64,000 bases of DNA from Takakia lepidozioides (lineage: Eukaryota > Plantae > Bryophyta): NCBI GenBank assembly GCA_030704615.1, contig CM060734.1, positions 12,400,001 to 12,464,000 on the forward strand. Reading direction: 5' to 3'. The position numbers were made by a program, and so were the translations under genes. The notes beneath the pieces are model-generated. The model saw nothing but the letters and a program-made list of their open reading frames with translations, made no database searches and was not told the origin of the DNA. Shown here one piece after another: positions 20,797 through 64,000 of this stretch; position 1 is the first letter of the stretch, and each line of letters opens with the position of its first letter.

Positions 20797-20819
20797 GCAC
20801 CAAGTTCCTCAAGGAGCGG

Positions 20820-28400: not shown

Positions 28401-28413
28401 AGCTAAGAGCCAC

Positions 28414-32022: not shown

Positions 32023-32193
32023 GACAACCAGCATGTAGCCCAGTGGTAATGGGCACATACCACGTTGGATGTGGTTGTGGGTTCAAACCACAGTCTGGTG
32101 TGTCATGAAGGTGTCCACCTTTCAGCTGGAAGGCAGTAGCCCTTGTGGTGAAGTGACACCATAAGTTACGCTCCCTTCGGGAGGCGTCATACT
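32023..32193 (+). mobile_element. tRNA-derived SINE, copy 2
   Basis: Near-identical to copy 1. TSD tttattatca(a/c)ctc at 32009-32022 and 32194-32207. Confidence 0.9.
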
Positions 32194-36872: not shown

Positions 36873-37038
36873 GACGCCTCCCGAAGGGAGCGTAAATTAT
36901 GGTGTCTCTTCACCACAAGGGCTGCTGCCTTCCAGATAAAAGGTGGATAACTTCATGACACACCAGACCGTGGTTTGAACCCACAACCACATCCAACGTG
37001 GTATGTGCCCATTACCACTAGGCTACATGCTGATTGTC
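36873..37038 (-). mobile_element. tRNA-derived SINE, copy 3, with a (TA)n 3' tail
   Basis: Reverse complement of copies 1 and 2. TSD tgagagag(g/a)gga at 36847-36858 and 37039-37050. Confidence 0.88.
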
Positions 37039-37907
37039 TGAGAGAGAGGAGAACAGATAGATCACAACCTGTAATTCAAACAGTCGTCGTGTATGTTCGA
37101 ACAGATCCAACTGCTGTTATGGGTATCAAACTGGTAGCCTATCATGCTGTCGATGCAGCTTCCTACGGTCGGTTTGACGCTAGAGTCCTACTCCATGGTC
37201 GTCGCAGACGCTGACTAAATTCCTAAGTGCTTCACCAACAACTTCCCAATAACTAACAGATTGCCCTGCTTTGGCATTACAATGCCAAAACTGCTCAAGA
37301 TAAAAAACGATCCAAAAAGAAAAATGTACCATTATATGCATCTACAAGCAGCTGCTTACATTCCCATGATGTTCAACGCTACAATTACGCTCCAAGGCGT
37401 GTGACTCGGAGTGCTTGGGGCTACCTTGGAGTTGTCTTGAATGAATGAGCACTAAGGGAAGGAGAAAAGGTTGAGAGAGAGATAAATGTGTGGTGTAGCT
37501 CTGGGTTCACTGTTGAATGACCGCGTGATGGGGTGGTGACGATACAGTGCTAGTATTTGATGAAAACCCACGGGTATATCACCCGAGTGTGATGATGTTA
37601 GTCGAATGCGGCACACCCCTGGCATATGCAATCATTGAGTTCGGTTTTTATCACCGGTGAGCCCCTGCTTCCTCTTCTCTTCCGCTACGGGGCAGCATGT
37701 ACGGAATATGAACGCCAGATGTTGACGGGTAATACCTAGGTGGTTTACGTAGCCCCATTTTTTCACACCACAAACTCACTCCCAGCTGGTATCTGATCCA
37801 TGCCACCACATCCAATTCTGAACAAAAGCTTCAGAACTCTATCAGTGACTCTCTCATTCTCTCCATGTATCTGATAAGATGGATGAAAGTGAGTCCACAA
37901 ATTACCA

Positions 37908-43285: not shown

Positions 43286-46200
43286 ATGGGGATAATCGAG
43301 AAGATTAAAGAGATTGAGCTCGAGATGGCTCGAACTCAGAAGAATAAAGCCACAGGTCCACTACTCTGTACCTTCCCAACGTGGCTATGGGGTTTAACCA
43401 ACCAGGGTTGCACAGCTGACACAACCCGGCCATAGAGACCAACACACAGGACACCTTCTCTTTGTTTGGTATTCCAACAATACTGAAGGGCAGGCTGTAG
43501 CTTTGGACTGGCAGTGACTGCACTGTAAGTCCTTCGAGAATAATTCTTGAGACAGAGAAAGAAGGGAATTTTGTCAACAGCTCATAGTGATAAGTGTGTG
43601 ATGGTAACATTCAGTGGTCATCGTTGTCATATTAATGTGTTGGGCCTTGGATGCATGCGGTAATGACAATGAAAAGTCAAATTACTTCAGTTCTGAAATG
43701 TGTGGAGATGGGCCTGTTTTGGTGAGTAAAGTGTGTTTCTTTTCCTTCACCAAAAATATGTATATATACATTTTGGGGCACTGCTAACATGGTTGAAGAT
43801 TGTATGCAGAGTATCATTTGGGGCAGCTGAAGGCAAGGATAGCAAAGCTGAGGACACAACTACTGGAACCACCTAAGGTTATCCTAGCTCCTACTTGCAT
43901 ATGCTTTTGTTTCTTCTGACCACTGCCATTAACATATGTTATTCTCTGTAGAATTACCAAATTGCTTTCCAGATGTTCTGGATTGGTTTGGATAGTTTTT
44001 CTTTTTCTGGTATCCAATCCTCTTCTTCAATGTCTGGACCTGGATGCATTCATTAGTACAGCTTGATAGAGAGAGGATCTTGCCATGATGTTTGGATGGA
44101 CTTATTGGAATTGTGTGCTGGCCATGGATTGAGTCATTTTGTGCTACATTCTCTAAATTCTCATGGTGTTCTATGTGCCATGTTCCACAGGGTGCCAGTC
44201 AAGCAGGAGATGGATTTGAGGTCACAAAGTTTGGTCATGGTCGTGTTGCCCTTATTGGGTTTCCAAGGTACGGAGTGCTGACTACCAGGACCAGTTGTAG
44301 TCCTTGCTAGAATGCAAACAGTCTGCTAGATTAACCTTTCGTTTTGTCATTGTGATCAACTACAAGTGCTCTCAGTTTAGTTGTCACTGTAGGTGATTTG
44401 ACCACACCAGGCAGCGGATGTTCAACACTTAAGAGTTTTTGCTGTCCCAGTAGCAAACAGAAGCAGAGAGGAAAGGGGGACGTAAGTGCCCATTGTGTGG
44501 GCAACCTGAAGACAATATTCACTTTCTGATTCTTTGTCCTGGGTACTCTCACCAGAGAGACGGGCCTCTTCAACTCCATCAAGGGAATTGTGCCTGTACC
44601 TCTGTTTACGAACTTCGAAAGTCTCGAGGCTGAGCCAAAAGCCCAGGCCCTTTTGGGACCTAGTTATTGGGCAAACCACACACAGCAGATTGATGCCTGT
44701 GTAAAGGGATTTCTAGAGGATATCTGGAAAACTCGGATCAATTGTCTGTTCCAAGGTAAGTCAAGCTACCGGTGTCAGCCCCTGACAAAGGTAGTTTCTG
44801 TCCCTTTGTGTTCCGCTCAAACTGAGCGCAGGGTCAATGGCCACAAGGCTACGGCAAACAACGTCTTATGAGTACATTCTTTCCCAGTATGTTTACATCA
44901 GCTGCTTTTGTCTTTTGAATCCCATGCAGTTATCCTTTTGCACTAATCCTCATCATCTGGTCTGCTTTCCCAGTGTTGGAAAGTCTACACTGTTGACTCT
45001 CCTTACAGGTACACAGTCTGAAGCTGCAGCATATGAGTTCACCACACTCACTTGCATTCCGGGTATCATCCACTACAATGATGCCAAGATCCAGCTTCTT
45101 GATCTTCCTGGTATCATAGAGGGTGCTTCTGAAGGCAAAGGTCGTGGCCGACAGGTACTACTAGTGTTCCATATAGGGCAATGAGCAGACAGGACACTGG
45201 TCCTGCTTCAGGGTCATGATACATTTCTAGACATAGAACTCCTTTTAGATTGCCAAGGGATTAGGGAACCGTGGTCCCATGTAGGTGACACTTTGTTCAA
45301 ATATACATAGGCTTTATGTGGGAGCATGAGTCAGACAAGACAGTTGGAGGGTGGGACTCTTCTTAGTCTGAACAGTGGACATCGGTGTTGTGGATTATTC
45401 ACCGGTTGACCCTAGAGCCCTGAAGCAAGTGTGATTGGTCGAGTCTGCAGGTGATTGCAGTGGCCAAGTCTTCAGATCTTGTGTTGATGGTTCTTGATGC
45501 TTCCAAGGTAATTTTGTGTGTATTCAGGTCCTTTCAGTTTTTGTTACTGCCTTTGAGATTTAGCTCTTTGCTGCGTCCTACAGAAAATTTATCTTGCATG
45601 TAAGGAGCCTGACCTCTGGTTCTTTCTCCACTGCAAGTGCTTATATACAGAGAGGGTATACTGATTAGATCACATTGCTACAGGTTTTGCTATAAATCCT
45701 GTGCCCAGCTGGATCATAGGTGTGGTATCATTACTTACATGTCTGGATTTCCGAACCGTTTCTGCACGTCAGGGTGCAATTTTGTCAATCAATTCCTCTA
45801 AGAATGAGAGAACTATCTGGTGCTTATGTGGGACAGAGTGAGGGCCATAGGCAGATATTAACAGGGGAATTGGAAGCTGTAGGGCTCCGCCTTAACAAGC
45901 GGCCGCCACAGGTAGGTCTTCTGCGTATCACAGGTGACTGACCTCCCATCTTCAGCTTTTACGACAATTTTTTTAAATTAATGACATTATTTTAATGAAT
46001 AACGTATGTCTTGATCTGTATTAATGAAAATGTGTGTGCTGTAGGATCTGGATTTCATGTTTCGGTTTAGGAACACTAATAGGATTTAATGTTGAAGATT
46101 AGCGATGAACATAGCAGTCGCAAATGCGGTACTGTGGTTTTCCCAAGTGGTGTTGCAGTTTCATGCAACACCAACCAGCAGGGAGATTTTACCCCAAGGC

Positions 46201-48135
46201 TGGATGACTTTTTGTGCTATGCAGAAATAAGCATTTTGTTCACGAAATGACAAGAAGTCACCAGTCATGCTGACAAGTTTGTGTTACACTCAAAGTACAT
46301 CCATCTGCAATGTGGACATTGTTCCATGGTATTGTTTGTTCAAACTTAATTTCCAAAAGCTGGTTCCTCACCTCCCCTACCTTTGACTGTTGGGCAGATC
46401 TACTTCAAAAGGAAAAAAACTGGGGGGATCTCTTTCAACAGCACAATGCAGCTGACACATGTGGATGAGAAGCTTTGTTACCAAATTTTGCACGAATACA
46501 AGATCCATAATGCTGAGGTGACTACCATCCATGTTCTTTTTCACTAATTTCTAGGTGTCAAAGGGTGCAGTTTTGGGATCTGTGCCGTGAAGTGCTAATT
46601 GGTGCTTTAGAGCTAACCATGGGAATGCAGGTGCTGTTTAGGGAAGACGCCACTGTGGACGACTTGATTGATGTGATAGAAGGCAACCGCAAGTATATCA
46701 AGTGTGTGTACGTTTACAATAAGATTGATGTGGTTGGCATTGACGACGTTGACCGCCTTGCCCGCCAACCCAATTCCATTGTCATCAGCTGTAACCTTAA
46801 GGTGACTTGTTGTAACCTTTTCAATAGACTTTGTTGCCAGACTCTTCTGATGGGGTTTCTCTCGCTGTAGCCTTTTTGGCCATACAGACTGAGGTGGTTA
46901 AGGGTGGAGCAGACGTGCACCTGATGCAGTAGCTTTGTGTACATGTTTGGCATGGGTAGTTGTGATCCAGCTAGGGGATGGTTTGATGAGCATTGTGCTG
47001 AAACTATATTTTTTGAAGATGAGGTGATTGTTGTGATAGCTGTAGTGATGGTGGTTGTGGGATGTAGTTGAACCTGGATAGATTGCTAGCTAAAATGTGG
47101 GAGGAGATGGGACTTGTGCGTGTCTATACTAAACCTCAAGGCCAACAACCTGACTTCTCCGAACCCGTCGTTCTCTCCACTGTAAGCTCTACAGTACCCT
47201 TTCCCCAGTCTGTCTGTATGTGTGGATGTGGTCCCATAAGCTCGTTGACCTTTTTGTGGGTGTTGTAGAAGTCCCTTCTTCATCTCTTTTTTGCTTTCTT
47301 CCTCCCCCCTTCCTCCATCCTCTTTGCTATTTCGAGTTGCGCTCTGGCATAGAGGCATAGAAGGGTCCGAATGGTTTTGAAGTTCCTGAGATGTGGAGGG
47401 AAATGGGCAGTTAGGGTACTGCTGCACACATGGAAACATCACAAGATGTGACGAGGAACAGGCTCAAAATATGTACAACTTAGGTTGCGAGTGCAAGGGG
47501 TCAATAATCGTGGGATGTTCAACTTCCAGGACAGAGGGGGATGCTCAGTAGAAGATTTTTGTAATCACATTCATCGTAGCTTGTTGAGGGACATCAAATA
47601 CGCGCTTGTCTGGGGTGGAAGTGCCAAGCACTATCCGCAGCGTTGTGGCACCTCTCATATCCTTCATGATGAGGATGTGGTTCAGATTGTCAAGAAGAAA
47701 GTAAGTCTCAGATCTCCATACATTCTGTGGGTTGGGGCAAGGTAGAGCTAGCTTGAAATTCATTATCTCCATCTGTTCACAGCTCAATTTTTTTTTCTGA
47801 CTGTCTGGAGTAAAGCTCAATCCTGTAGACAGGATGATGTTTGCTTAGAGAGAGTCGTGGCAACTTGCTAGTAAGAATGTCTCTGTATTATTTCACTTGG
47901 ATCAATGGCTCAAGGCTGCCGCATGGTTTGGCAATTACTCTTCCAAGTACATTGTCTTGAATTGTGTATCTCTGTTTATATCTTTGATTCCAGCATGTCC
48001 ATCCTTTGCTGATATTGTAATGTTTACTTGCTACAGGAGAAGGAAGAGGATGGAGGGAGAGGTCGATTCAAGTCACATACAACTGGTCCAGCCCGAATTG
48101 CTGATCGAGAAAAGAAGGCCCCCCTCAAGACATGA
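43286..48135 (+). CDS. DRG2: Developmentally regulated GTP-binding protein (DRG2-type, OBG family), 11 exons, about 400 aa
   Basis: Exons 43286-43355, 43810-43877, 44191-44267, 44974-45154, 45451-45507, 45837-45911, 46398-46517, 46631-46801, 47068-47181, 47530-47700, 48037-48135. Motifs [52 protein letters not shown] and a TGS domain. Confidence 0.96.
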
Positions 48136-48254
48136 TACGAGCTGTGCATGTGTCCTATTTCTGAAACATCTCTGCAGACATTTGATGTCTGTTATGTGAA
48201 TTGGCTGCCATGGAACCCTCTCATGTACCTCTCTTTAAATGCCCGGAGGGAGAA

Positions 48255-49745
48255 CAACGCCGTATTCTCAGTGACCCACAAGAAGGTTTTCGTGCTACGC
48301 GAAGCACTACTAGACAAATCCAATATGTTATATCTGCCCTAGAAGATGCCAAGCTTACTAAACAAGACATCTACCTCATGTATATTGATTTTAAGAATGC
48401 CTTTGGCTCCTTAGATCATCCTCGCCTACTAGCCATTATGGCAGATTTAGGATACCCTACTGATGCTATCCAACTCATTGGTAACATCTACACCAATAGT
48501 ACCACAGAATATTGCGGTTTTTATTACGGCACTACCCCTCCTATCCCCATTGTACGAGGCACCATCTAAGGAGACACACTAAGTCCCTACCTATTCATCA
48601 TCTTTCTTGAACCTCTACTAAGATGGCTCGCGGGCGGTAACCTAGGATACCAATACAAAACCTCTTTTAATGAAATATTCGTGGCTGCCTATGCCGACGA
48701 TCTCGCCATTCTAGCACACAAGCCCCAACACCTCAATCGCCAGGTTGACAAATTATCTCGCTTTAACCAATGGTCCGGTATGGAACTAAGCCTCCACAAA
48801 TGTGTGATCACTGCAGCCACACACCACAGTAAATTCACTAAATCTACGATAGCCTCTCATTGCAAACTTCACATACATTACCAACAAAAACCCTTCCCAT
48901 TTTTAGGCCCGAACGAACCCTACACGTACTTGGGTATCTAGCTGGTTCCCTCATTCAAATGGCATATACAAAAAATCACCAAACTTTCTAAGCTAACCAA
49001 TAGAAGTCTAGCCCTCCTCAAATCTCCAGTTTCCATCCGCCCCAAACTAGCCATCATCCAAAAAGTCCTCAAACCGCAAGTCCAGTACGCCTTTCATGCG
49101 GCCCCCTTCTCCCTACCTGACGTCAAACTACTCGACAAAACTATTACTCAACTCACAAACGTATTTGTGGCCTACCCACCAGTACCCCGAACGCTCTTAC
49201 TCAACTCCCACAAGACAGCTGTGGCATTGGATCGAGCCCCTTAATTATCTCATATGCCCGCACCCTTGGTTCGCAACTTCAAGAAGCCCTCAACGACCCT
49301 GGTCGCCTTGGGCTCATTTTCAAAGGACTTCTTCAACATCTAGCGGTTAAATTTAATGGGCTATATTCCCTCCCCACTCTCCACCCTCAATCTTGCCTCC
49401 ATTTCCCCACCGCCCGCACACTGTTTATCCTACGACAAATGAAGATTCGCATACAAACCGACTTACCGGGGTACCCCAACTCTATATCACCACTTGAACG
49501 TGCCTGGCTTCATAGCCCCTTTTCATCACAATTTGAAACCTCACACCCACGTCAAAAGAAATTCATCATTGCCTACTTTAAAGACCGGCATATAACTAAC
49601 CTTACCCAACTCACTACTGCCATTGGGGTTCGGCTCCTAACCCCAAGCCAATTCACCTTGAAACACTCCGCGCCACTGTCAAAACACATAGATACCTGCA
49701 CAACATCTCCGCCTCCTATTTTGTCCCCCGACTGCCACGTGCACC
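48255..49745 (+). mobile_element. LINE reverse transcriptase fragment, probably the same Dualen-like family
   Basis: QEGFR, YIDFKNAFGS, RGTI*GDTLSPYLF, AYADDL and YTYLG. The sense strand is C/A-rich like the other fragments. Confidence 0.88.
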
Positions 49746-51275
49746 CGTGAATGTGAGGTGTATGGCTTTGAAACATTTGTGAATAGCGGTGATAGGGAGT
49801 TGAAAGTTGTTTTGTAGTGCTGAGATGCTGGCATTATGGATGCCCCCTCGGGTGTCGGCAGTGATAACAGTGAGTGGGCCTGTGGCCCATCCCCGCCGCC
49901 GAATAGCAAGGATGAGTGGTGCGTATTTTTGGCGTTTTTCTAGGAGGGAGGAGCTGGGGAAGCGGTCATGACAGAACGTGAATTCTATGAAATGTATGGT
50001 GATGGTTGGGGATGGCGTGAGGGGTGGATCAGCATTAATGGGAAGGCCCTGGACTAGGAGGATGTCCGGGCATAGTCTGGCAGGGCATGAGCATGCTATA
50101 TGAGGTCGGCATATACAGGGAAGTAGCCACGTTGGTACCGTGTGGTCAAGGGGCCGTCCTTGGTACGTGCTAGCATTGATGAGTGGGAACCACCTAGTTT
50201 TAGTACGGCGTAATAAGAGTTTGTGTAGGTGCCATACGACATGATTGTGGCAGGCAATACGAAATCCATGGAGGACGGGATGGGGGCATTTGCTGAGGAG
50301 ATGAGGCCAGGTATCTCGCGTGGCGTGGGTGTGGGAGCAGAGTGGGCAGTGCGGGGATGGGAATTGAGTAGGCCAGAAGGTATATTTGCATTGGTGACCC
50401 ATATATTGGGCATATCTGAATTTAAGTGTTTGCCGTATTTGTGCATCAGATACGGCTTTAGAGTTCCAGAAGTGGTTTGACAGCTTGTGATGGAGGACCT
50501 GGGAGAGGGACCATTTTTGGATATGTAATTTAGTATGACTAAGAGACGCTGAGGCTTGTTTGTTGGCTTCTTTAGTCAGTGTGGTAAGAAGGTTCCGAAT
50601 TGGGCGGGGTTCTGGAGGGTTAGGTATTGGGTGAATCAGCCAAAAGGGATGTGTGTGAGCAATGTGAATGGGGTCGGCTGTGGGTTCGACTGGGGGTTTG
50701 GAGGCCCCCAATTGGGCAAAGAGGTCTGCCTCCTCATTGCCATGAATACCAGTATGTGAACGGACTTTGAGAAAATGAATGGGTTTATTGATGGAGATGG
50801 CGAGTTTGGCAATTGCGGAGAGAAGGTTTCGATCCGGGTGATGGAAATGGGAGGAGGGGCAGGCAACGTGGTTACGAAGTAAAAAAAAAAAGTTGAGGCC
50901 GTCCGTGAAAATGTAGTATGGCGAGGGGAATGCGGTTAATTGTGATAACGCTTCAAAAATAGCCATCAGCTCGGCACGGAGGATGGTTGCGGCACCTGGC
51001 AGTCTGTGGGCGGTCCCGTTGCTGGTGGCGGCATGGTAGACGCCGTATCCAGCAAGGGATCCTGATTGGGAGCCGTCTGTGTAGTGCGAGTGGAGTGGGG
51101 AGTATTTGGGGGAAGTAGGCCCTAGGTGGACCAGGGGGGCTTCATGGGAGGGTAAATTGTACAGGGTACTTGGACGAGGTGGAGTCTTGTCCCATACTAT
51201 GCTATGTTTTGGCCTTGGGGGTGGTTTGGCGGGAGGGCTTCGTAGGGGCAGAGGGGGGGTAGGTGGTAACCACCA
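49746..51275 (-). mobile_element. LINE RNase H-CCHC-RLE segment in one open frame
   Basis: ORF 49716-51281: YTDGS, RAELMAI, IFTDG, KVRSHTGIHGNEEADL, CPLC..H..C..HN, RLCPDILL..FIEFT..EKRQKY. It continues beyond the Gypsy insertion at 63287. Confidence 0.92.
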
Positions 51276-51628
51276 TGTCAAGTTAAATAAGCACAGTGTG
51301 AAAACAGCTAGAATAAAACTAGTTATTTATATTTAACACTTGGATTTAGGTCAAGTGTTAAATCAGGTGTCAAGTTTAGTTTGACACCTGGTCCGTCTTA
51401 TCTTCACGAGAGCGGCAGTCGCGCAGCTCATCTCTCTCGAGTTGAGCCTGCGCGACCAAGCTCCTTCATGCGTTTAGATCTGAGTGTGCTTCTGATGGGA
51501 GTGTAGGTTGTTGTGGGGTGGAGTCCCCATAGCTTGGGGTGCCCCTGGCTCGACTTCTATTATAAAGAGTGATAGTGATGGATTTCATATGTTTTGTGTC
51601 AACAGTGTGTTAGTGGGTTTTCTTATCA
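51276..51628 (+). repeat. LTR segment B (5' copy)
   Basis: 353 bp, about 4 substitutions versus 62848-63200. Confidence 0.95.
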
Positions 51629-51645
51629 CTCGAGAGAGATGAGCT
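51629..51645 (+). promoter_or_regulatory. Self-priming primer binding site
   Basis: CTCGAGAGAGATGAGCT directly after the LTR end TTATCA is the exact reverse complement of 51425-51441. Confidence 0.8.
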
Positions 51646-51679
51646 CTATCTAGTTTTCTAGTGCTAAGCTAGATATGAT

Positions 51680-53630
51680 GTTTTTGTTTTTTTTTTAAAG
51701 CACTATTATAATATAGATGGTCATGGTCTTGTACACAGCTCAAGCAATGAGCATAGAATGGCGCTAGCTGGAGTTTTTCACATCCTCAGTCGCAATGGTG
51801 GGACTCGGGGGGTATAGGTAGAAGAGAGAGTAATGGTGGTATGTCCAGATTCCTGTTGGCATTGGTGAGGTGTGTTTCCACTGTAGGGGCGCCGCCGCCT
51901 GTGGAGGATATGCCGATGGCAGCTGGTGGTGGTGTGATGTCAGGGCCCCCATAGAGCCCGCTGCGGTGAATGAGAGCAGCGAATGGGGCAGCAGTGAATG
52001 GGAGTTCAAGTAGAGCCAGTGGCTGGTGAGCCTTTGGGTGTGCATTCTCTGCGATAATGGCCGCGCCTTGCCCTGTGGGTTGATTGAGCCTGCATGGGGG
52101 GGGTGGGTAGCTTTTCAAGTACCTTATTTGCATGCTCGTAGAAGAGTGTTAAGTTAGCACCTAGATTCTCTGGGGATGGAATACTGGAGCTACAGGAGGT
52201 CAGTGTGATGTCCTTCCTGCCGGGCAGCCATGTTGATTGAGACCTTATTTTCCATGGCCACTAAATCCTCTTTGATATCTGTCTTGATGGAGATGGCCTG
52301 AGCGGCTAGTCGCTTGTTGATTTCTGCCATTAGTGAGTCGTGGCCTTGTTTTTGGTTTGAGGTCGTCTTGAAGCTGATTGATTGTACAGTTTCGGCAAGG
52401 GCCTGGTTGATGTTGGCGACTCTCGGTCGCTCGAGTATCTCTGCAACAGGGGGGAACAGCCTTGTTCAGGCTGTTGATATGCAACTCGAACTGGATGTAC
52501 TTGTCAATGACTAGAATGGGTGGCCGATTGCACCATTGTGTGTAGATACTCGGGTTCCTGCAGGTGATGAGGGCCAAGCCGATGTGCTTTGTCTTCTCAG
52601 ACCTGGTGATCTTGCCGAAGTGAATTTGAACGATGTTGTCTTTGCCAAAAATGCCTTGAAGTGCGTTTACTGTTGCTGCTTGAGAGTGCAGTGGGTTGAG
52701 GTTTTTTTTTTTTGCTACCAATGTGACGGCGTCTCTCTCAGCAACAATCTCCTGAGGTGTTGCAGAGATGTCAGTCATACTGGTTTTACGAATGCGGAGC
52801 TGTGGTTTGATGAGTGTATGATTGACCCGCATCCCTAGTGCTAAGCATTCTCTACTTGGAGTCGTCGGTTGCCTGGTAAATGAAGCAGAACTTCGTATGC
52901 GGATTTGCTTTGTAGACCATGAAGAATTCCAGAGGCCATCTCTAGAACGAAGGTGCGGTTTCCTTTGAGCAAGGCGATACCATCTCTGGCGGGATGCAAC
53001 AGTTCAACCTTGAGTAGTCCTGGCCAAGTCTTGCTACCGTGTTTGGTGTACGCGGTGATCGGCGAGTAGAGAACATTACACAGGGGGATATGCATGTGGG
53101 CGAACCTTTTGCTGGTCAGGGCCTGCTCCTTTGGCATGTCTGTGTAAGTGGAAAGAGTTGGCCCTCCTTCCCGTGGAAAATAGAGTTGGGGGAACGTGAG
53201 GAAAAGCCTTCAAATCATGTCGCATCTCTTGGATCGGTGATATAGGGAAGTGCCAAGTCATATGCATGTTGTTCTAATGCAGGGTATCCCACCCAAAGCT
53301 GGGGCCCCATCTGTGAATTGGAGATTTCCATATGTGGGGAGGACCCCCCTGACCTTTTTTTGAGCCTGAGTGGGAGCTGGCGATATCGCTATTCAGTGTG
53401 CTGGAGGCTCGCTTGAGACAAGGGCCTGCGGGTACCAGCCCTGCTGGTGTGAGAGCTGCTGCAGGCAGTAGCGTCGGCTGTTGGTGAGACGAGATAGAAG
53501 CACTTTGGGTCTTCAATCCTGAGTGCCTCAGTACGTGAGCATTGTCGGCACCAGCTTGATTTTGCATAGACCTGGAGGGGAACGGCCTCGGGAACCCGTA
53601 GATAACCAGGGAACAGGGAACCAAGACAAG
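51680..53630 (-). mobile_element. Nested insertion with a degenerate ORF1-like (RRM-like) coding region and no RT
   Basis: Frameshifted minus-strand ORFs (GIFGKDNIVQIHFG..KHIGLALITC..KYIQFELH). It is bounded by T-tracts and interrupts the Gypsy leader. Confidence 0.55.
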
Positions 53631-53955
53631 TATTTTTTTTTATAAAAAAGAGTTTTCTTTGTATTTGTTTTGTCTTATTTTATTTTATTTTTAAAGGGAA
53701 AGAAAAAGAAAAAGGTGTTATGTTTAAAGAGCCTGGTTGGTCATATCTTCGTCAAATGAGCTCCGTTTGACTCAGTTTTTGAGGGGATAGCTGCAGAAAG
53801 GGAAATCTACCTATCTAGACCTGGTTTTTGTTTTGGGACTCTGCTAAAAATCTATGGAATTTTTAGAGTGTGAGTGTGCCATGAAAGATCCACAATCCTG
53901 TTTCTAGAACCTGTTCTGGTCTACATGAGAGACAAATCTGGGATGTACTCCTTGT

Positions 53956-54701
53956 ATGGCTGGGGGAAATGAGGACGTAATTGAAGGGCAGGTCTCTTCT
54001 CTTAGCCTGTGCACCAAAGGGGACAAGATTTATGTTTCCCAAGGAACTCAGACTGATTTGAGTGGAGAACAGTTGGACGAGTTGATTGCATACTGGGAGT
54101 CAGGCATTAGCAGTAGACAACAAACTGCTGTAGTTGGCGTTGAGGGCCTCAATATCGCCTTGGACAGTCAGAACTCTGTTGGAGCCAGCAGTTCTGCAGC
54201 TGTAGGTGAAATACCAAAGTGGGTGAAAGCTAGGCTTGGAACACAGCCAAAGACAGCCCCGGGGACCAAGGTGTTCAGCCACAAGGCCGTGGTGTACTGG
54301 AGCAGAGGAGCAGGAGCTACACAAGTTTGTGCAATCAGACATGGTTGCAGCCGGATACGCTCTGCACAGGGCAACCACGAGCGGGGGTTCATAGCAATGA
54401 CATGTTTGTTGTGCGTGAAGGAGATGCAGTCATTCGCAATGAGGACACCCGCAACCGTCTCAAAGCTTTCGAGTTGAGAGACTATCAGACCTACCTTTGT
54501 TTTCTTTAGTGTTCAGTGAGGGAGATAGGGGAGTATTGCTTTGTCTCTACCTGGCAGAAAGAGGAGGAGGGTTGGTTAGAGCGAGCTACTGTAGCTTGGG
54601 ACAAGGTTAGTGGCAGGTTTCTGGACATAGATATACCTCCTACACCTTACCATCATGCAGAGCGAGGCACTTTGAGAGAAGTCTGGCAGTTGATAGCATA
54701 G
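53956..54701 (+). CDS. Extra ORF of unknown function in the Gypsy leader (frameshifted)
   Basis: ORFs 53956-54477, 54327-54509 and 54516-54701 join into about 245 aa with one frameshift and one stop. Confidence 0.45.
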
Positions 54702-55217
54702 ATCAGGATTAGATCTTGCTTGGTCGGGCTTCTATTCTTCCCCTCCATCTCTGTACTATTTTCATTACCTTGTACTTGTAGTTGCCAAAGCCTCTCTTGG
54801 TGGAGGCCAGTCAGTCCGGGGTTTGGGCTGGGCTATTCTGCAGGATCAGCATTGCAGCTGGATTTTGGTGGGGGTGTTGATGTTTTGATTTCTTGTGTTT
54901 GGATCCCCCCCAACACCTGCATGCTTGACTGTGCGCCATGTTGGTTTTGTGTGGGCGCTTGCTTTCATAGGGATTAGGCCGGATTTGATCACCGGTCAAT
55001 CCTAGAGTATGCTGTCGGTGGTGAGGCTGGAGTGATGACCAGCAAGACCACCAGTGTTTCTTCTATGGTGAGGCTGGGTTGATGACCAGCCAACCATAGG
55101 AGTTCTTGCGGTGGATGCAGGTGCAGGTGCCCTGAGCCATTGGGATATGACCCTTAAACTGCAACAGGTGCCCACCCGTGTCACTATTAGATTAGTACTA
55201 GAGCCTTATAGTGTCAC

Positions 55218-56863
55218 GTGGAGGAGGTGCACATTGTGAGTGTCATTACGGAGTTACCCAAGGGTTTTGAGGGGAGTACGGCTACAGGCAGTAACAGTGA
55301 GAGTGGGTTCACAAGACGAGGTATTCGGTTCAGACCACCTTCACCGCCACCCTCAATTACTGTAGAGTCAGACACAGACTCGGAGGCTTCATCAACAGGT
55401 GTGCACTTTCATTCGCCATTGTTGTGGGACGACATGGAGGAGATGTATGGAGCTACCAAGGGGCCTCGTAGGTACTCTGGAGCTGTGGGCACAATCGAGT
55501 TGGATGACTTTATCCAGGAGTTCGACAGCTGGTGTGATTTGCAGCAGATGCGCAATCCACAGCTATTCACCCCATTCATGGCGTGGAAGGGACTGTTCCA
55601 GCATTTGGAAGGCCCGCCTATGGACGATTACCACGAGTTCAGGCGAGGACATGAAGCAGAGATTGAGGAGTGGAGGATGTATTGGTCACCTGACTACGTC
55701 TCCATTACTCGAGGCACGACGCGACCAGTAGCTGCATCAGTACCAATAGCTCCCACTGCCAGCACTAGTAGTGGAGCAAGTAGTGCTGGTACTTCTGCAG
55801 GTGGTACCAGTTCAAAAGGTGCTACTACTCCTCCTGCCACGACTACAACACATGTGCCTAGATTCAACCCGGGGTGGAGTTCTTCCAGGAGTTGCGGAGG
55901 AACTACCAAGGTGTACGGACAGAGAAGCTGCGAAGTTTGCAAGACTTCCAGCGCAAACCCAGTGAGAGCCTGCGAGAGGCGTACACTCGTATGAGGCGCT
56001 TGATAAGTGTGACCCAAGGGGTTACTGAAGCTCAGGCAATCCAGTTTTGGTATGGAATTCTGGACAAGGAGCTCAAGAGAAGGGTGCGAGATGCAACCCT
56101 GTTACAAGCAGCCCAACCCACATTAGCAGATGTGTTTCTGCTGGCTGAGCGGATTGAGCTCAACATGGTGGAGGAGCGAGTTGTTACAATTGGATTTGGC
56201 AAGGACATGCCTGCACGGGGCACAGCTGTCAGCCCACAGGCACAAGGGACTGCCCAACAGCGTGGTCAGGGGGGCAAGGTTGCCCAGCCCAAGTTCCATG
56301 GAGCTTACAGGGGACCTCAGGTGCAGAGGCCCGTGGCATCTTTTGCAGGCCAACAGCAACCAGGGGTGATATGTTGGACATGTGGAGGACCCCATGTCAA
56401 GAGAGATTGCCCAGAGAGTGGCAAAAGGCCGGCACAAGCACAGCCTGCACAGTTGCAGTGTGGGCATTGTGGCAAGTATGGGCATGGAGATGCCCAGTGT
56501 TATGACTTGCATCCTGAGTTGCGCCCAGGCCAGTTCCAAGGGAACAATGGTGGCCGGGGGCGAGGTGGACCAGCCCAGAGAGGACGAGGTGGTCGGGCAC
56601 GAGGTGCAGGCCAAGGGCAAGCTCAACATGGCCAAGGACGCGGAGGTCAGGGTGTTGACCAAGGCATGGCCAACCGGCTTCAGCAGCTAGAGCAGAGGCT
56701 CGCTGCCATGGCTATAGCTCAGGCGGTACCGGCTCCCAGGCGGGATGGTCCACCTCCTGCTCCTGAGGGAGGAGATATGGGAGGCATGGGATTCATGTGC
56801 ACTACCACTAGAGCAGGTGGAGTCTGCTGCAGCCGTGACTCGAGGAGCAGCACGAGTTCCTGA
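55218..56863 (+). CDS. Gypsy Gag
   Basis: Retrotransposon-gag-like LQDFQRKPSESLREAYTRM, knuckles CWTCGGPHVKRDC and CGHCGKYGHGDAQC, and RGG repeats. One frameshift near 55874. Confidence 0.85.
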
Positions 56864-57302
56864 GCCACGAGGTGCAGAGGTGGAGTTGGATCCACAACGT
56901 GGGGAGGCAAGCCGTCAGGCGAGGCTCCTCAGTCATTCACCTTGGCGGAGACAGTGTCAACCATCCATGGCACCTAGTTCTCGCCCGACTGTTACCGAGG
57001 CGGAGGTTACTATGCCATTGGGGAGAGCTACACGTGCAGCACTGACACCTGCTGCCAAGGCTAGTGCAGCCGGTGTGTTGTTGGGGGCAGCCACCTCTGT
57101 GTGTCAAGCCCCACTGTTCTCGGCAACCATGATTGCGACGCCGGGGTGAGACCAGCTGCAGTGTTCAGACTAGCAGCAACACTCTGTGAGAGTGGGGAGG
57201 TCACTTCATCTTCTGCGGAGTTAGTGGAAGGTGTAGTGGCAGAGGGATCCTCGGATTTGAGGGTCAAGACTGCCACGGCGCCTGGCAAGCTGCAGCTGCC
57301 AG

Positions 57303-57725
57303 TTGACGGAGCTGCCAGCTAGGCCAGCCTTTGAGCGCGCCATGGTGACACCTGGAGTTGTCTTGTTAGACAACCAGGGAGGCATTTTCACTTTGAGTGG
57401 ACCGGCAGGCAAGAAGTACCGGCCACTGCGGGTCTTGTTGGACTCGGGAGCTCAGCCACTGATGTTGGGCAGAGCTGCTATTGCAGGTTTGGGCCTCATG
57501 GAGGCGGATATGGAGCCTTGTCCTTTCCAGATACAGACATCTCTGGGAGGATCAGAGCAGGCTCGGGGCATGACACGGCATCAGTTGGCCATTAGACTGC
57601 AGCCGGATCATCCTGTAGATGGCTCAGTGATGCGAGCCAAGGCCATTGTGACAGACGCGGTCTCTTACGATGTCCTCGTTGGTGGGGCAGTGTTATACCC
57701 CATGGGCTTCACCCTGGACTTTGGG
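57303..57725 (+). CDS. Gypsy aspartic protease
   Basis: VLLDSGA...YDVLVGG. Confidence 0.85.
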
Positions 57726-58148
57726 AGGAGTCAGCATCCTACAGGCCTGGATGGCAGTCAGGGATGGTCGCCGTGCAGCTCCCTGTGACATTCATTGGGG
57801 GTATTGCGGCTGCCCAGCGGGGCAAGATGCCAACACTAGCCGCCTTACAGCTGCAGTTAGTTGGCCTGGAGAGTTGCTGGAAGGCAATGCCCATGCAGAG
57901 GATGTGCCACCTCCAGCAGAGCAGGATGACATGCATGGTATGGCGGAGTTGCCTGCCATGGTTGCTCACACTCCATTGTGGGGTACGAGCAAGGATTTGC
58001 AGCAGGCTGCTGATGGACGGGTGCAACAAGCCTGGGTAGAAGCTTTTGTACCGTCAGGAGAGGAGGAGAGTGCGGTGATTGCACCAGGACCACCTCAGTT
58101 GTCGCCATTGGACACCACCTCTTGTGTGGCAGGCCGGATCGAAGGCAA

Positions 58149-59100
58149 TGCCTTCTGGACTTATTTGGCGGGATATATCAGCACTGGATTGGCTGCAGTG
58201 CTGGCAGGCAGGTGTACGAGTTTGACGTTACCTGTATGGGAGAGGGATGAGCGCACGACGCGTCTCACTGCGCCATGTTGCTCAAATGCTGCAGCAGTAC
58301 CTGAGTTGTGCAGGTGTCTGCAGTTCGTGGATATCAGCAGGCTTGCCAGCAGACATTGCGTTGCTGGGGGCGCAGGATTTGGAGCGGGTTGGCTCCATTG
58401 ATCTGGTAGTGGCAGGTTGGCTGCCAAGGGCATTCATCAGCCGGGCATGGCAATGGATTGCTAGACTCGAGGACGGGTTTGTATTGGGAGATGGTGCGGA
58501 TTTTGCGCCACTTGCAGCTTCATCAAGCTGTATCTCCGACATACATCTTGGAGAATGTGCCGACTGATGGGTGATTCTCGGGCCAGGGTGATGGCCAGTG
58601 TGCATCAAGTCCGGTCGTGGCTTGGGTCAGCAATGTTGCTGGATATAGCTGCAGTGGGATCAGGGCTCATCGTCCACGACTATGGTGGACTAACTTGATG
58701 CCACCCGCACTGCTCAAGCGTGCATTTTGATGGGGTGCAGTGGCCAGCACACCTCACCGTGGATGGCATTTTGGACACAGGAAGGCAGTCTCAAACGTGT
58801 GAGACACGATGACCGTTCGCCTTTGGCAGTGGTCAACAGGTGGGGTCAACCACGAGCAGCATTACCTACACTGCTCAGCTTCCCAGGATCCCATGCTTTT
58901 CGGGATGGTGGACCTGGCCTCCTGTGGGATGCTCAGTTGCACAGTTAGTGGAAGCCTAATGCCGACGAGCGAGAGCGGGCTATGGGGTTTTCCACTGGGA
59001 CCACGGCGGTGCCTTCTCTTTCTGAGGCATCACGTCGTCAGGTGTTGGGGCAAGCAATGGATCTCAATTGCTTGACCTGGATTTATCAGCTTGGCTATGG
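58149..59100 (+). CDS. C5 cytosine DNA methyltransferase domain (DNMT3-like) inside pol, frameshifted
   Basis: Motif I LLDLFGGISTG (58152), IV DLVVAGW[P]CQG (58400-58430), VI YILENVP (58542-58562), VIII AHRPRLWWTNL (58665-58697), IX ERERAMGF (58967) and X RRQVLGQAMD (59033-59062). Confidence 0.88.
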
Positions 59101-59649
59101 CTGAGCAACGTAGAGTGCGGAGCGCACTTCCCTTGACGGTCTCTCTGCTACCGAGACGGTACAAGCAAGCGAGTGGGGGCGAGCGGTGAGGACCACGGGG
59201 TGTAGACATCCATGGCACACGTGGGAGGTGCTCGAGGTCAGAGGGAGTTGGCAGCCAAGGCAGCTGTGATGGATGAGGTTGGGGATTCTTCTCGGGTTGA
59301 GGAGGTCTCAATGATGAGATGATGGGGCAGGATGAGGCCTTGTCATTGACTGAGCAGGAAGGGAGTACTGCTCAAAGAGGTTGCAGCATAGCAACCACGG
59401 GACGCGTCTCTACCTCTAAGCCCACTGGACTTAAGGTTGCAGTACGGAGGACAATTGGGAGCCTGACATTGGACCCTTGTCACCGGAGGAGAGAGACGAC
59501 GTATGCGGCGGTTCCTGAGGGCTTACAGGAATTGCTTTGCCTTCAGTTTGAAGGACTTGGAGCACTGAAGGTCAAGAGATTCGCATTGAATTGGCTACTG
59601 ACACGCCAATCTTTCGGAGACCCTATAGATAAAGTGACATGGAGAGGTC

Positions 59650-60875
59650 CTTGATTCAGATGAGACTCAGGTCTTTGGGAGGCAGGTTTGGTGTGGAGCT
59701 CTCTGGTGGAGAGTATGCTTCAGCCACAGTGATGCCAGCCAGAAGGATGTCTATGGCAATTGGACGGAGAGACGTATGTGCGGTGATTACCGGCCTGTAA
59801 ATCGTCAGACCAAGTCCGATAGGTATGCCATGCCGACACCAGAGGAGATCTTTGATACCATTGGGCATTCCAAGGTCTTTAGCACGTTGGATTTACGATC
59901 CGGATATAACAGTTGCCGATCAAGGAGGCGGATAAGCAAAAGACGGCATTTGGGGGATCAATGAGCACGGGAAGGATTGCCTATACCAGTGGCGGTTCTT
60001 ACCATTTGGGCTTAAAACGCTCCCGCTGAGTTTCAAAGAGTCATGGACAGGATTCTAGCAGGGGTGGAGTTTGCTCGGTGCTACATAGATGACATCATCA
60101 TCTTTAGTGCTACGGTGGAGGAGCATGAGAGACACCTTCAGGGGGTATTTGAGCGCTTGAGGACGCACGGATTGAAGTTACATCCGGGCAAGTGCAAGTT
60201 TTTCCACAACCAGATTGAGTATCTGGGTCACATGATATATCCTGGAGGATTGGGGGTACAGCAGACTAAGGTAGAGTCCATTGCACAGGTTCCACGCCCC
60301 ACGGATGTGAGCTGAGTTCGAGCTTTCATGGGGTTAGCAAACTATTACAGACGGTTTATAAGGGATTTAGTGCCATTGCAAAGGCTCTAACCAAGCTGAC
60401 CAAGGTGGACCGAGTGGAGTGGCAGTGGGAAGATGAACAAGAACAAGCTTTTCAAGAGCTCAAGCGAGGTTGACCTCGGCGCCCATCTTGAGACGACCTA
60501 TCAGGGGCGTCCTTTTCAGCTGCATACAGATTGGAGCATGCTGGGGCTTGGGAGCGGTGCTCACACAGGTGGATGATGAGGGGAGAGAGTCGTAGTGGCT
60601 TATGCTAGCCGCTCGAACAATGTTGCAGAGTCTAAGTATAGCTCATATGGAGAATGCTTAGCTGCAGTATGGGCCGTGGCACACTTCAGGTGCTATCTAT
60701 ACGGCAATCTCTTACCCTTGTCACGGATCACCAACCACTCAAGTGGTTGATGGAGTCAGACAAGCTTACGGGGAAGCTTGCACGGTGGGCACTCATCCTT
60801 CAAGAGTATGACTTTCAGGTGGTGCATCGACCGGGTTTGGTCAATCGCAATGCAGATGGGTTGAGTCGCAATCCA
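59650..60875 (+). CDS. Gypsy reverse transcriptase and RNase H (frameshifted)
   Basis: MCGDYRPVN, LDLRSGY, YIDDII, LHTDWS, LVTDHQPL, NADGLSR. Confidence 0.92.
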
Positions 60876-61259
60876 TGCACGAGCCAGCAGGATGACACTG
60901 GAGCTCGGTGGCATGGTGAGACGGACGAGGAGATGGTGCCCGGATGGCATGCATCTGCATTTCTGTGTATCTTGGCAGGAAGGCCAGGTTGGACCTGCAA
61001 CAGGGATAACTGTAGATCAAGTGTCTGAGGACTCTGAGGCCAGCAATGAGCAAGGTGGCGCCAAAGATATACATGAGGATTCAGTTGTGTTGGACTACCT
61101 CCGCACTGGAGACACTGCAGCCACTGTGACTCCCAAGGAGAGGGATCGGATCCTACAACGAGCCAAGAGGTTCAAGTGGGATGGGACACACCTGCTCCGA
61201 GTGTGGGAGGATGGTCGAGTGAGGATTGTGCCTCACCCAACACAGCGGGCACGGTTAGT

Positions 61260-62300
61260 GCGGCATGCCCATGAGGAGTTGGGGCATTTTGGGGTGCGAC
61301 GCACTCATAGTCTACTGCAGGGGCAGTAGGTGGCGTGGTATGCACACAGAGGTGCAACAATTTGTGGCTAGGTGCATGGTGTGTGACAGGGTGCGTGCTT
61401 CATTCAACGCCCCTACTCCACAATTGCACCCTCTTCCGATCATGGGATTGGGCTACAGGTGGAGTCTTGACTTCGCAGGGCCGTTGCCACTGACCATGCG
61501 CCACAACAAGTACGTGTTGGTGATGGTGGAGCACTTCTCCAAGTGGATTGAATTGGTTCCATTGCCTGATAAGGCTAGTGAGGGAGCTGCGTATGCATTC
61601 TTGGATTGTGTGCTTAGCCGATTCGGTGCTCCAGCTGAGGTACTCACGGACCAAGGGAGAGAGTTCTTGGGGGAGTTTCAGGCTTTGTGTGACAAGGCCT
61701 TGATAGACCACCGCACCACTTCTCGGGATCATCCTGAGGCCGATGGCTTGGCAGAGAGAGTTGTTCAGACAGTAAAGAGGGGTTTGCACAAGTATGGCTT
61801 GCAGAAGGGACACCTAGGAGATTGGGACCTTCAGTTACCCTGGTTAGCCATGGGCTACAGGTTCAGCAAGCAAGCATCACTTGCCTCCTTCTCACCATAC
61901 TTTCTTCTCTTTGGCCGAGAGCCGGATTTGCCTACATCCATTCGTAGAGAAGCTGCTACAGTTCTTAATCCGGATGTGTGGGCACGTGCATGTGAGCAGC
62001 GTGCAGAGTTGTTCAAGAGAGTCATGCCCATGGCTTTCGAGAACCTTGTCATTGCACAACACTGTGATACGTTGAGTTTTTACCATACGTGGTGGGGGCT
62101 ATCGTCTTGGGGTTCGGAGATTCAACCCTGGTGACTACGTCTATCTGCAGCAGACTGCTCCTACGACCTGGATGTGACTGCAGGACGTGTTATTTTGAGG
62201 GTTCGAGAGGTCTTGCCCTCAGGCATCTTGGTCTTGGAGGGTCGGGATGGCATAACTTGGAAGGACCATGTGCGTAATTGTGCGCACCATGTCACTTTCC
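61260..62300 (+). CDS. DDE integrase
   Basis: H..H..CMVC zinc motif, WSLDFAGP, VLTDQGREF, AERVVQTVK, SPYFLLFGR. Confidence 0.93.
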
Positions 62301-62349
62301 GAATGTCGATGGCAGGATAGACCCAAACTTGGCAGTGGTATCTGCAGGT

Positions 62350-62499
62350 TTGAGGTGCATGTTGTGTGGGTCTACTAAAGGGGCAACCACCATGCTGGTG
62401 TGTGATCGATGCTCTAGAGGTTGGCATATGGGATGCTTGACTCCACCTCTTGAGATGGTTCCAGATGGGGATTGGTTATGTCCACATTGCATTGGATAG
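62350..62499 (+). CDS. PHD finger at the integrase C-terminus
   Basis: CMLC...MLVCDRCSRGWHMGCLTPPLEMVPDGDWLCPHC (C4HC3 with the conserved W). Confidence 0.9.
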   Translation: MRCMLCGSTKGATTMLVCDRCSRGWHMGCLTPPLEMVPDGDWLCPHCIG

Positions 62500-62759
62500 T
62501 GGGAGTGGATACAACCATGGAAGGCTAACAAGAAACGCAAGGCCCAGCTACTAGGAGACCTTGAACACACGAGATCCTGGCTCAAGTTCACAGATTGCAA
62601 GACGGCGACTAACGATGGGGCTACTCTTGTACCCGACCTCTTGGTCTATAGAGTTTGAGTACAATAGGGACAGTGATAGAGGACTTAGTACGGCTGTGGC
62701 TATTACATCTTGTAGCTATCTGGAGGTAGAGGGACCTATCCACCAGCTAGGGGGGCGAT

Positions 62760-63200
62760 TGTGGCAGACTACTTTATTGTGCATATATGTGTGGTGTGGT
62801 TTGGACAGCGATGATGTAGTTGTGTAGCGATATGTGCGCACGACAGCTGTCAAGTTAAATAAGCACAGTGTGAAAACAGCTAGAATAAAACTAGTTATTT
62901 GTATTTAACACTTGGATTTAGGTCAAGTGTTAAATCAGGTGTCAAGTTTAGTTTGACACCTGGTCCGTCTTATCTTCACGAGAGCGGCAGTCGCGCAGCT
63001 CATCTCTCTCGAGTTGAGCCTGCGCGACCGAGCTCCTTCATGCGTTTAGATCTGAGTGTGCTTATGATGGGAGTGTAGGTTGTTGTGGGGTGGAGTCCCC
63101 ATAGCTTGGGGTGCCCTTGGCTCGACTTCTATTATAAAGAGTGATAGTGATGGATTTCATATGTTTTGTGTCAACAGTGTGTTAGTGGGTTTTCTTATCA
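62760..63200 (+). repeat. Complete 3' LTR (A 62760-62845, GC, B 62848-63200) after PPT AGGGGGG
   Basis: TGTGG...TATCA, preceded by a polypurine tract at about 62749-62758. Confidence 0.9.
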
Positions 63201-63201
63201 T

Positions 63202-63286
63202 TGTGGCAGACTACTTTATTGTGCATATATGTGTGGTGTGGTTTGGACAGCGATGTAGTTGTGTAGCGATATGTATGCGCACGACA
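63202..63286 (+). repeat. Second copy of LTR segment A
   Basis: Matches 62760-62845 except for two small indels; ends GACA and is followed by the TSD. Confidence 0.92.
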
Positions 63287-64000
63287 ACCATGTTATTGGT
63301 GTTGATTAGAAGGTTTTTGAGACGGGTAGGGAAGTCTGGGGGTATGGAAGTGTAGGGGTTGTTTTGGACCAGCAAAAGTAAGGTTAGGGTGGGTTCTTTG
63401 TGACGAAGGTGTTTAGGGAAGGGCAAGTTACGATTGTAACGAAGTTGGTTGGGTTCAATGGCGGCTAATGGTGTTACCCCTAGAGGAAGTTGTAGAAGGG
63501 GGTGTAGCTGGTCGGGTGACCTTTGCTGTGTGAGAATAAGGATAGTGGTGGCGGAGGGGAGGCATGTGCGGCAAGACGTGCCCATTGGAGAGCTACGTGT
63601 GTGAGGGGCCTAGGTGGTGGGTGGGCAAGGCCACCTCCCGACCAGGTATGATGTGTTGCCGAGCCTAGGGCTCCGAAAACACAGTCTCGAGGGTGCGGGC
63701 TGCCATAGGAGGAGAGCTCAAGGGGGCATGTGAGTGGGCTTGAGTAGTAGGAATGGGTAATCTGGAATGAGGTGATAAGAAACTTGAGGATGTCTGGAGG
63801 GATGGAGCAGTGGGTATGGGCTTGGGCTAGTTTGTCGAGGGCACAAGGTTTTTTTGTGGGTGTATCATTTAGATGTCTGACAACAAGCCAGCCGACTTCA
63901 GTGGCGAAATCCTGCCTTGGGGGTTGCAGCTGTGTAGTGCGGGAGATGGAGGCGGTAGATCTGTCCCAGAGCCAGGCGAGTCTGATATGGGAGAGAGACC
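63287..64000 (-). mobile_element. Continuation of the LINE upstream of its RNase H
   Basis: Joins 51275 across the TSD and has the same compositional bias. Confidence 0.7.

Follow-up and report, generated by a model that had tools for sequence, protein, structure and literature searches.

Does the DNMT3-like methyltransferase domain in a moss Gypsy retrotransposon belong to the element, and if so, on which DNA would it act? The question arises from a 64-kb stretch of the Takakia lepidozioides genome, the whole of which we analysed and call the window, where a domain of this kind had been predicted between the protease and RT of a Gypsy element. Judged by comparisons with its relatives, the element is one broken member of a Ty3/Gypsy family that is abundant in bryophytes and whose enzyme appears to be under purifying selection between intact copies. 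The features of the element are collected in Table 1.

Table 1. Features of the methyltransferase-bearing element and its insertion site, in window coordinates.
Feature	Position	Strand	Evidence or remark
LINE-like RNase H ORF, cut by the left end of the element; target DNA	49716..51271	-	RNase_H E 6e-13
Left 4-bp target-site duplication, ACCA	51272..51275	+	repeated at 63287-63290
Repeat A1, 353 bp, TGTC...TCA, left end of the element	51276..51628	+	349/353 identical to A2, gapless
17-nt tract complementary to the PBS	51425..51441	+	A positions 150-166, exact complement of 51629-51645
PBS, self-priming type, directly 3' of A1	51629..51645	+	
3.6-kb leader with antisense ORFs	51646..55211	.	element part or nested insertion
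Leader antisense ORFs	52245-53003, 52841-53209, 53274-53639	-	
gag, frameshift-broken, CCHC knuckles	55212..56860	+	Retrotrans_gag E 0.004
Aspartic protease (LLDSGAQ)	57261..57788	+	gag-asp_proteas E 0.006
DNMT3-like C5 cytosine methyltransferase domain	58099..59159	+	frameshift-aware alignment, relatives' profile
Motif I, LDLFGG	ends at 58172		
Motif IV, AGW-x-CQG	ends at 58430		
Motif VI, YILENV	ends at 58559		
Motif VIII, RAHR	ends at 58673		
Motif IX, ERERAMGF	ends at 58990		
Motif X, RRQVLGQAMDL	ends at 59065		
TAG-CAA-CCA, conserved stop, Gag-PR-DNMT / RT	59389..59397	+	matches UAG-CAR-YYA
RT (YIDD) and RNase H, frameshifted	59479..60980	+	RVT_1 E 7e-18, RT_RNaseH E 5e-9
DDE integrase and H2C2 zinc finger; D, D, E present	61066..62284	+	rve E 1e-14, Integrase_H2C2
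PHD finger, integrase C-terminus	62296..62496	+	PF00628 E 4e-12
Polypurine tract (PPT), directly before B1	62747..62758	+	
Repeat B1, 87 bp, ends GACA	62759..62845	+	94% to B2
Palindrome GACAGCTGTC, B1/A2 join	62842..62851	.	two element termini head to head, 2-nt spacer
Repeat A2	62848..63200	+	
Repeat B2, 86 bp, ends GACA, right end of the element	63201..63286	+	depth collapses beyond
Right 4-bp target-site duplication, ACCA	63287..63290	+	

Three intact natural relatives (P0015; P0013, from Calypogeia fissa; and P0004, from Marchantia polymorpha) were aligned, allowing for frameshifts, to approximately positions 58099-59159 of the window, with 67% identity over 360 columns, 67% over 359, and 65% over 353, respectively. 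Six C5-methyltransferase motifs (I, IV, VI, VIII, IX, and X) lie at 58155-59065 in the order that had been predicted; the domain is unpermuted, not DRM-permuted. A profile of 26 relatives, searched against all six frames of the window, matched only at this domain, in four pieces with i-E values of 2e-15, 3e-26, 1e-10, and 6e-49. The Pfam DNA_methylase model matched one of five window fragments tried (E 0.0002; 21.3 bits, slightly below the cut-off of 22) and 13 of the 14 relatives scanned. The prediction of a methyltransferase domain at this place is confirmed.

In the alignment to the intact relatives, the window domain contains 14 frameshifts and two stops; one of the frameshifts cuts the Pro-Cys (PC) motif, in which the Cys codon is retained. 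Because of these lesions the copy, as assembled, would be unable to make the enzyme. There are hints that the frameshifts may be long-read errors. A1 and A2 differ by four substitutions and zero gaps, compared to 14 frameshifts in the DNMT kilobase; one X7 contig differs from the window by 38 substitutions and 34 gap letters over 2173 bases; and the 580-codon clathrin ORF of the window stays open, unlike the frameshifted element. A homopolymer signature is absent, with five of the 14 frameshifts near runs of at least three, against a background of 31%.

The clathrin heavy chain gene, intron-rich and located at 4980-18302 (+), also bears on the host. A tree of its exon columns (1652 residues; 92.5% identity to Sphagnum, 92.4% to Marchantia) places it as sister to Sphagnum plus Physcomitrium with an ultrafast bootstrap of 99, which upholds the description of the neighboring genes as embryophyte-type and makes an early-diverging moss the likely host; whole-gene tblastn identity failed to separate the hosts, whereas the exon-column tree did. 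One clathrin intron within 14492-16231 is open in frame. The segment at 44795-46867 (+) presumably holds exons of a DRG-type GTP-binding protein, judging by translated motifs. Rearranged remnants of a related copy of the element occur on opposite strands at 10-1131 (minus) and 1202-1677 (plus), with 80% (RT-RNase H) and 75% (protease) DNA identity to the element; the relatives' profile found no methyltransferase match in them. Several LINE-like fragments, two with RNase H-like regions, and a piece resembling a Gypsy integrase-chromodomain end are spread over 1962-3320 (+), 27057-30112 (+), 48186-49750 (+), 49716-51271 (-), and 20798-21205 (+). A 170-bp repeat, possibly a short mobile element, occurs three times (28454-28632, 32023-32195, and 36873-37044; 94-98% identity), once inverted.

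The domains of the element follow the order gag, protease, DNMT, RT, RNase H, integrase, PHD, as established by Pfam matches and by ungapped pieces of the window RT-RNase H that align to the intact locus L036; this is the Gypsy arrangement that had been proposed, with the DNMT between protease and RT. The L036 ORF has Ty3 as its best PDB match, and the window gag is 54% identical to Marchantia P0002 over 226 columns. The PHD finger is retained in relatives, and its best PDB matches are the PHDs of CHD4, PHF12, KDM5A/B, and ATXR5; the intact L035 and L036 ORFs contain this PHD and no chromo match. Of the leader antisense ORFs, two were scanned without a convincing Pfam match, none matched the relatives or the rest of the window, and the best match to the Atlas was 0.80. 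These pieces could represent ORF1 of a nested LINE or, alternatively, an additional ORF.

We compared P0015 to PDB sequences. The top 26 matches were all DNMT3A, B, or C, with the best E value (3.6e-11) for DNMT3A; DRM-type enzymes from tobacco and Arabidopsis (1e-6 to 4e-3) and M.HaeIII (5e-5) ranked lower. The predicted model of P0015 (mean pLDDT 63.9 overall, mostly 70-93 across the domain) also had DNMT3A as its best fold match (E 1e-15, TM 0.81 on target). By both measures for P0015, the element domain matches DNMT3 more closely than it does enzymes of the DRM, DNMT2, or bacterial type, as the motifs had suggested. The catalytic domain of human DNMT3A is about 23% identical to this relative, and the element enzyme, which is embedded in a retroelement protein, is without PWWP, ADD, and DUF3444.

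That the window copy is badly broken would suit a single, isolated capture in which a piece of a host DNMT3 was taken up and has since evolved neutrally, an outcome named in advance as a refutation. The spread of the family speaks against it. A protein search with the Marchantia domain returned 34 proteins, including 18 named Marchantia, one Calypogeia, and one Sphagnum fallax, and a metagenome scan returned 57 loci (42 non-redundant groups) with the DNMT at the same position, of which L013 and L014 cluster in the DNMT tree with the protein from Sphagnum. The contigs over 57200-63700 numbered 56,779 and 58,488 in two runs of one sample, where summed contig depth is no copy number; the depth over the DNMT is about that over the RT and integrase, and it collapses past 63276. 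The dN/dS values that had been called for are 0.115 (0.031/0.269, unsaturated) for L036-L038, 0.11 (0.16/1.43) for L035-L036, and 0.17 (0.29/1.68) for L009-L013, similar to the protease (0.029/0.234). In the decayed Sphagnum-type family, selection looks weak, with a mean ratio of 0.60 (0.98, neutral, for singletons and 0.57 for shared changes). Host DNMT3s of non-flowering plants carry DUF3444, according to the accessible part of PMC6453930, and this domain was absent from all 14 relatives scanned with Pfam. With spread, depth, dN/dS, and the absence of DUF3444 all opposed to it, we rule out one-off neutral capture, the probability of which is negligible.

A second layout, RT-RNase H-DNMT-integrase-PHD, was found in P0104 from Scenedesmus sp. 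PABB004 and in 81 other domains, so that the DNMT adjoins the RNase H or the integrase in 82 of 158 element domains. The DNMT tree parts this layout from the PR-DNMT layout with a support of 0.985, which indicates that the domain changed position at least once. P0119 is a single unbroken protein of 2188 aa that reads PR-DNMT-RT-RNase H-integrase. In total, 265 clusters at 50% identity reach an E value of 1e-30 or better. Viral contigs gave 30 loci (L058-L087) that match only about residues 308-558 of the query with 27-53% identity; these are probably phage enzymes, their likeness to the element enzyme being general to the family. They and the element enzyme have the AGWPCQG motif, or something close to it, in common. 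As an outgroup, in a tree that left out the window's own DNMT domain, the viral sequences gave no reliable root: six fell inside the PR-DNMT group and one inside the other group.

Many intact relatives are Gag-PR-DNMT proteins, roughly 1280-1450 residues long, whose C-terminus lies 45-138 residues beyond the domain. In L036, a 1369-codon ORF of this type and a 1047-codon RT-RNase H-integrase-PHD ORF share one frame with a single stop between them; L035, L009, L013, and L038 likewise have a single in-frame stop at this boundary. The context UAG-CAR-YYA is the tobamovirus readthrough signal, as given in the accessible text of PMC2754532. Among 36 non-redundant loci that reach this spot, 33 have a TAG or TAA stop and next to it CAR-YYA (5) or CAA-CCC (28), two have none, and one has another context; any TAR-CAR appears in 16% of shuffles. 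In the 28 CAA-CCC contexts (the Sphagnum-type family), the final base departs from CAR-YYA. P0001, the nearest sibling protein, terminates some codons ahead of the stop, and P0119 is without it, so the stop is not universal in the PR-DNMT layout. From the stop context, we infer readthrough, which would mean that the methyltransferase is made at the level of Gag.

This stop changes parts of the original prediction. The domain had been placed within pol; it does lie ahead of the RT, but in intact relatives it closes the Gag-PR frame, with the RT following after one in-frame stop. The proposed check on whether the catalytic motifs are intact and in frame with the RT comes out positive for the motifs (PC in 35, EN in 33, and RxR in 34 of 38 same-layout proteins, with the catalytic motifs kept in about nine-tenths of the members of both layouts), whereas the frame is shared but interrupted by the stop. 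The suggestion that the enzyme works together with the PHD reader fares worse: the two domains flank the stop and would be parts of different mature proteins, so that an extra assumption is needed.

The ends of the element were examined only in the window and in the metagenome loci. The element has the TG...CA termini, PBS, PPT, and 4-5 bp target duplication of Ty3/Gypsy, yet two whole LTRs are not present at its ends: A stands at the left, and B-A-B or B at the right. The full layout is A1-PBS-genes-PPT-B1-palindrome-A2-B2, with the 4-bp duplication ACCA on both sides. Taking the 353-bp pair as ordinary LTRs was rejected, because the duplication and the PPT disagree with those ends. A1 would comprise the promoter-side part of U3 plus R-U5, and B1 the distal part of U3. 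On the left, the element interrupts a LINE-like ORF with a related copy at 28624-29011; the right flank had no match to this other LINE copy.

All 12 non-redundant 5' ends begin at A, without an upstream B, and relatives have the same polypurine tract ahead of B. The 3' end is B-palindrome-A-B in the window, L018, L042, L043, and L053; B-A, cut by the contig end, in L013; and PPT-B alone, without a second A-B, in L006, L010, L037, and L050. It is rearranged or interrupted in L025, L041, L048, L004, and L020. The five copies readable at both ends all have 4-bp duplications (window ACCA, L043 AAGG, L042 TCTC, L050 ACTA, L025 CACA). The palindrome occurs only once within the window; it is kept in L013, L043, and L035, nearly the same in L018, L036, L042, and L053, and conserved between families with otherwise differing repeats. 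The A/B junction is exact within one base in four of six cases, with a shared one-base overlap, and has extra letters in the other two, which are PPT-like in L042 and PBS-like in L025/L029.

An RNA fold of 51420-51660 pairs the 17-nt tract with the PBS (z = -3.74, 0 of 200 shuffles). The same layout occurs in relatives with other letters, exact over 9-16 nt in six of seven loci checked, and their tract lies about 26 bases past a TATA-like box where the box is intact. The tract is likely the 5' end of the transcript and its self-primer, to judge from these pairings. In a single X7 contig, a loose end occurs at 62997, where the self-priming tract begins, and the letters of this end match the reverse complement of the sequence 3' of the PBS. 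This is a hint of a fold-back at the transcript 5' end, from one contig whose status as RNA is a guess.

The reading we favor, with a probability of roughly 0.55, is that Gag-PR-DNMT methylates the element's own new cDNA and that integration proceeds from an LTR circle opened at the internal palindrome. Transcription would start inside A1 near 51425, and the first ~17 bases would pair with the PBS, priming without a tRNA; the pairing is computed, and from it we infer self-primed reverse transcription. Most ribosomes would halt at TAG-CAA-CCA and give Gag-PR-DNMT, and readthrough would give RT-RNase H-integrase-PHD; the methyltransferase would be packaged in Gag-like amounts, outnumbering RT and integrase, and would lie beside the cDNA. 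Methylation of this cDNA is favored because the enzyme would be packaged with Gag and sits apart from the PHD. With the PBS following A and the PPT preceding B, ordinary LTR-type copying would, by established retroviral logic, yield a linear DNA with B+A at both ends. The A-internal-B-A-B form would arise if the ends of this molecule were joined and it was then reopened at the left B/A palindrome; an LTR-type scheme offers no way to copy B2 from the parental B2, so the ends must be joined and then reopened. A cut after CA in each strand of GACA-GC-TGTC would leave CA-3' ends and 2-nt overhangs, as DDE integrases use. The integrase would insert the opened circle, producing the 4-bp duplication that is observed, and its PHD finger may recognize the tails of histone H3 at the insertion site.

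The junctions are consistent with this route. The PBS-like and PPT-like letters at the A/B junction fit ligated cDNA ends, and variation at the A/B junction is what the joining of such ends should leave, whereas the B/A palindrome is kept across families. From a one-LTR circle, A-internal-B would result, as in L050; the four copies with PPT-B alone fit such circles, although later deletion would account for them as well. Two equal palindromes are present in a two-LTR circle, yet the mirror product A-B-A-internal-B was seen at none of the 12 5' ends, so the circle model needs a bias of unexplained origin or quick loss of the extra A-B. This gap is where its main rival gains: there would be no free circle, the RT would jump between cDNA ends, or two cDNAs would join end to end, and the integrase would trim the resulting longer linear DNA at two palindromes. 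A directional jump accounts for the single orientation, and the one-base overlap and the precision of four of six A/B junctions are what a template jump could give. The middle palindrome must still be spared, however, the ligation-like junction letters remain, and the clean duplication around A-internal-B in L050 fits a one-LTR circle. We regard this rival, which would leave the role of the DNMT unchanged, as unlikely.

For that role, a different target is conceivable. The enzyme might act mainly on chromatin, at or after integration and guided by the PHD, marking the insertion or its neighborhood. Fingers of CHD4, KDM5 PHD1, PHF21A, and ATXR5 read H3 tails unmethylated at K4, as does the DNMT3 ADD, and the PHD that relatives have kept is most like these fingers; moreover, the second layout puts the DNMT next to the integrase. 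In the PR-DNMT layout, though, the DNMT on the Gag side and the PHD on the integrase side of the stop would be separate proteins in unequal amounts, and we consider a chromatin role quite improbable. It is more doubtful still that the domain is kept for binding DNA or RNA, or that it methylates one palindrome (CAG/CTG) against the integrase and not the cDNA in general. Each insertion must spare one palindrome, the palindrome contains a symmetric CAG/CTG site, and the Klebsormidium domain showed no methylation in yeast, a result its authors call inconclusive in the accessible text of PMC5890265. The yeast result also counts against the favored methylation of the cDNA. Against binding alone stands the conservation of the catalytic motifs in both layouts, and against shielding, that nothing points to sequence specificity for the palindrome.

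Two-LTR circles are dead ends for retroviruses. Extending the favored reading, we put at somewhat short of even odds a clade of methyltransferase-bearing Gypsy elements spanning the green lineage in which the integrase sites have moved to mid-LTR and two-LTR circles would be the obligatory precursor of all replication-competent insertions, with a Gag-level DNMT3 that would mark the cDNA and possibly choose the palindrome to be cut.

By its published description, the closest known system is KnitGypsy-Dnmt3 of Klebsormidium nitens, which de Mendoza et al. (2018; PMC5890265) describe, in the text accessible, as an acquisition of the K. nitens lineage. It shares with the moss element the Gypsy domain set, an intronless, unpermuted Dnmt3-like domain, and purifying selection, and the legend of its Fig. 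4 calls its repeats DIRS-like despite the Gypsy domains, a likeness judged from that legend; the link to Klebsormidium elements drawn at the outset holds to this extent. Its host is a charophyte alga, whereas the present elements are found in land plants, and its enzyme is placed in the Pol ORF, whereas that of the present elements closes the Gag-PR frame ahead of a leaky-type stop. The main text of PMC5890265 has 0 occurrences of PHD, its accessible sections give no mechanism for the repeats, and its supplements, as far as searchable, contain neither 'KnitGypsy' nor 'Marchantia'. The relatives found by our protein searches include no Klebsormidium-named protein. Later papers, in their accessible parts, give the range of KnitGypsy-Dnmt3 as 'streptophytes' (PMC12344493; bioRxiv 10.64898/2026.05.21.726589); the words Marchantia, bryophyte, and land plant are absent from that part of the latter. 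Our literature search, which is incomplete in coverage, found no description of a bryophyte Gypsy-DNMT3, of which an earlier mention may exist, and none of an integrase element with split or permuted LTRs explained by a circle.

The Ngaro/PAT tyrosine-recombinase retrotransposons have split direct repeats, A1-coding-B1-A2-B2, explained by circle integration, and this arrangement is also that of the moss element. In contrast to DIRS/Ngaro/PAT, the moss element has a DDE integrase, a protease, a PBS, a PPT, and a 4-bp duplication; no tyrosine recombinase match was found in it, the rve integrase and 4-bp duplications being present instead. Tf1/Sushi and plant Tcn1 Ty3/Gypsy chromoviruses, which are present in mosses, self-prime with a PBS that complements their own 5' repeat (PMC6317226, accessible part). 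The moss element resembles Tcn1/Tf1 in its PBS, as far as pairing goes, and differs in having a PHD and not a chromodomain, a methyltransferase, and split in place of whole LTRs. Foamy virus integrase has been proposed to cleave a palindromic two-LTR circle junction, giving processed ends (PMC1180852, accessible part), which is a precedent for the cut proposed here. In foamy virus, that palindrome is where the two LTRs meet, and a normal provirus results, whereas in the moss element the palindrome is inside the LTR; the integrated form is therefore permuted and so records the route.

Retrotransposon-borne DNMT3 has been described from one charophyte alga and from dinoflagellates, and as far as the literature searched reaches, it is known in print only from algae. 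The methyltransferase of the moss element extends the range of a known element to land plants; more surprising are its permuted ends, which are based on a palindrome. The integrated form A-internal-B-A-B cannot derive from normal linear cDNA, and these ends bear on the old question of whether circular DNA can serve a DDE integrase as a genuine precursor of integration. The putative integrase substrate is a defined 10-bp palindrome, open to assay. LTR finders that expect two whole LTRs would miss or mis-cut such DNMT-bearing elements. The DNMT3-bearing element is an abundant, selected family in mosses and liverworts, with the second layout in a chlorophyte (Scenedesmus), an occurrence that speaks against its having been acquired in the Klebsormidium lineage alone. 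The family includes many gene models of Marchantia polymorpha that carry the annotation 'hypothetical proteins', and the Marchantia copies bring the question of the enzyme's role into a genetic model.
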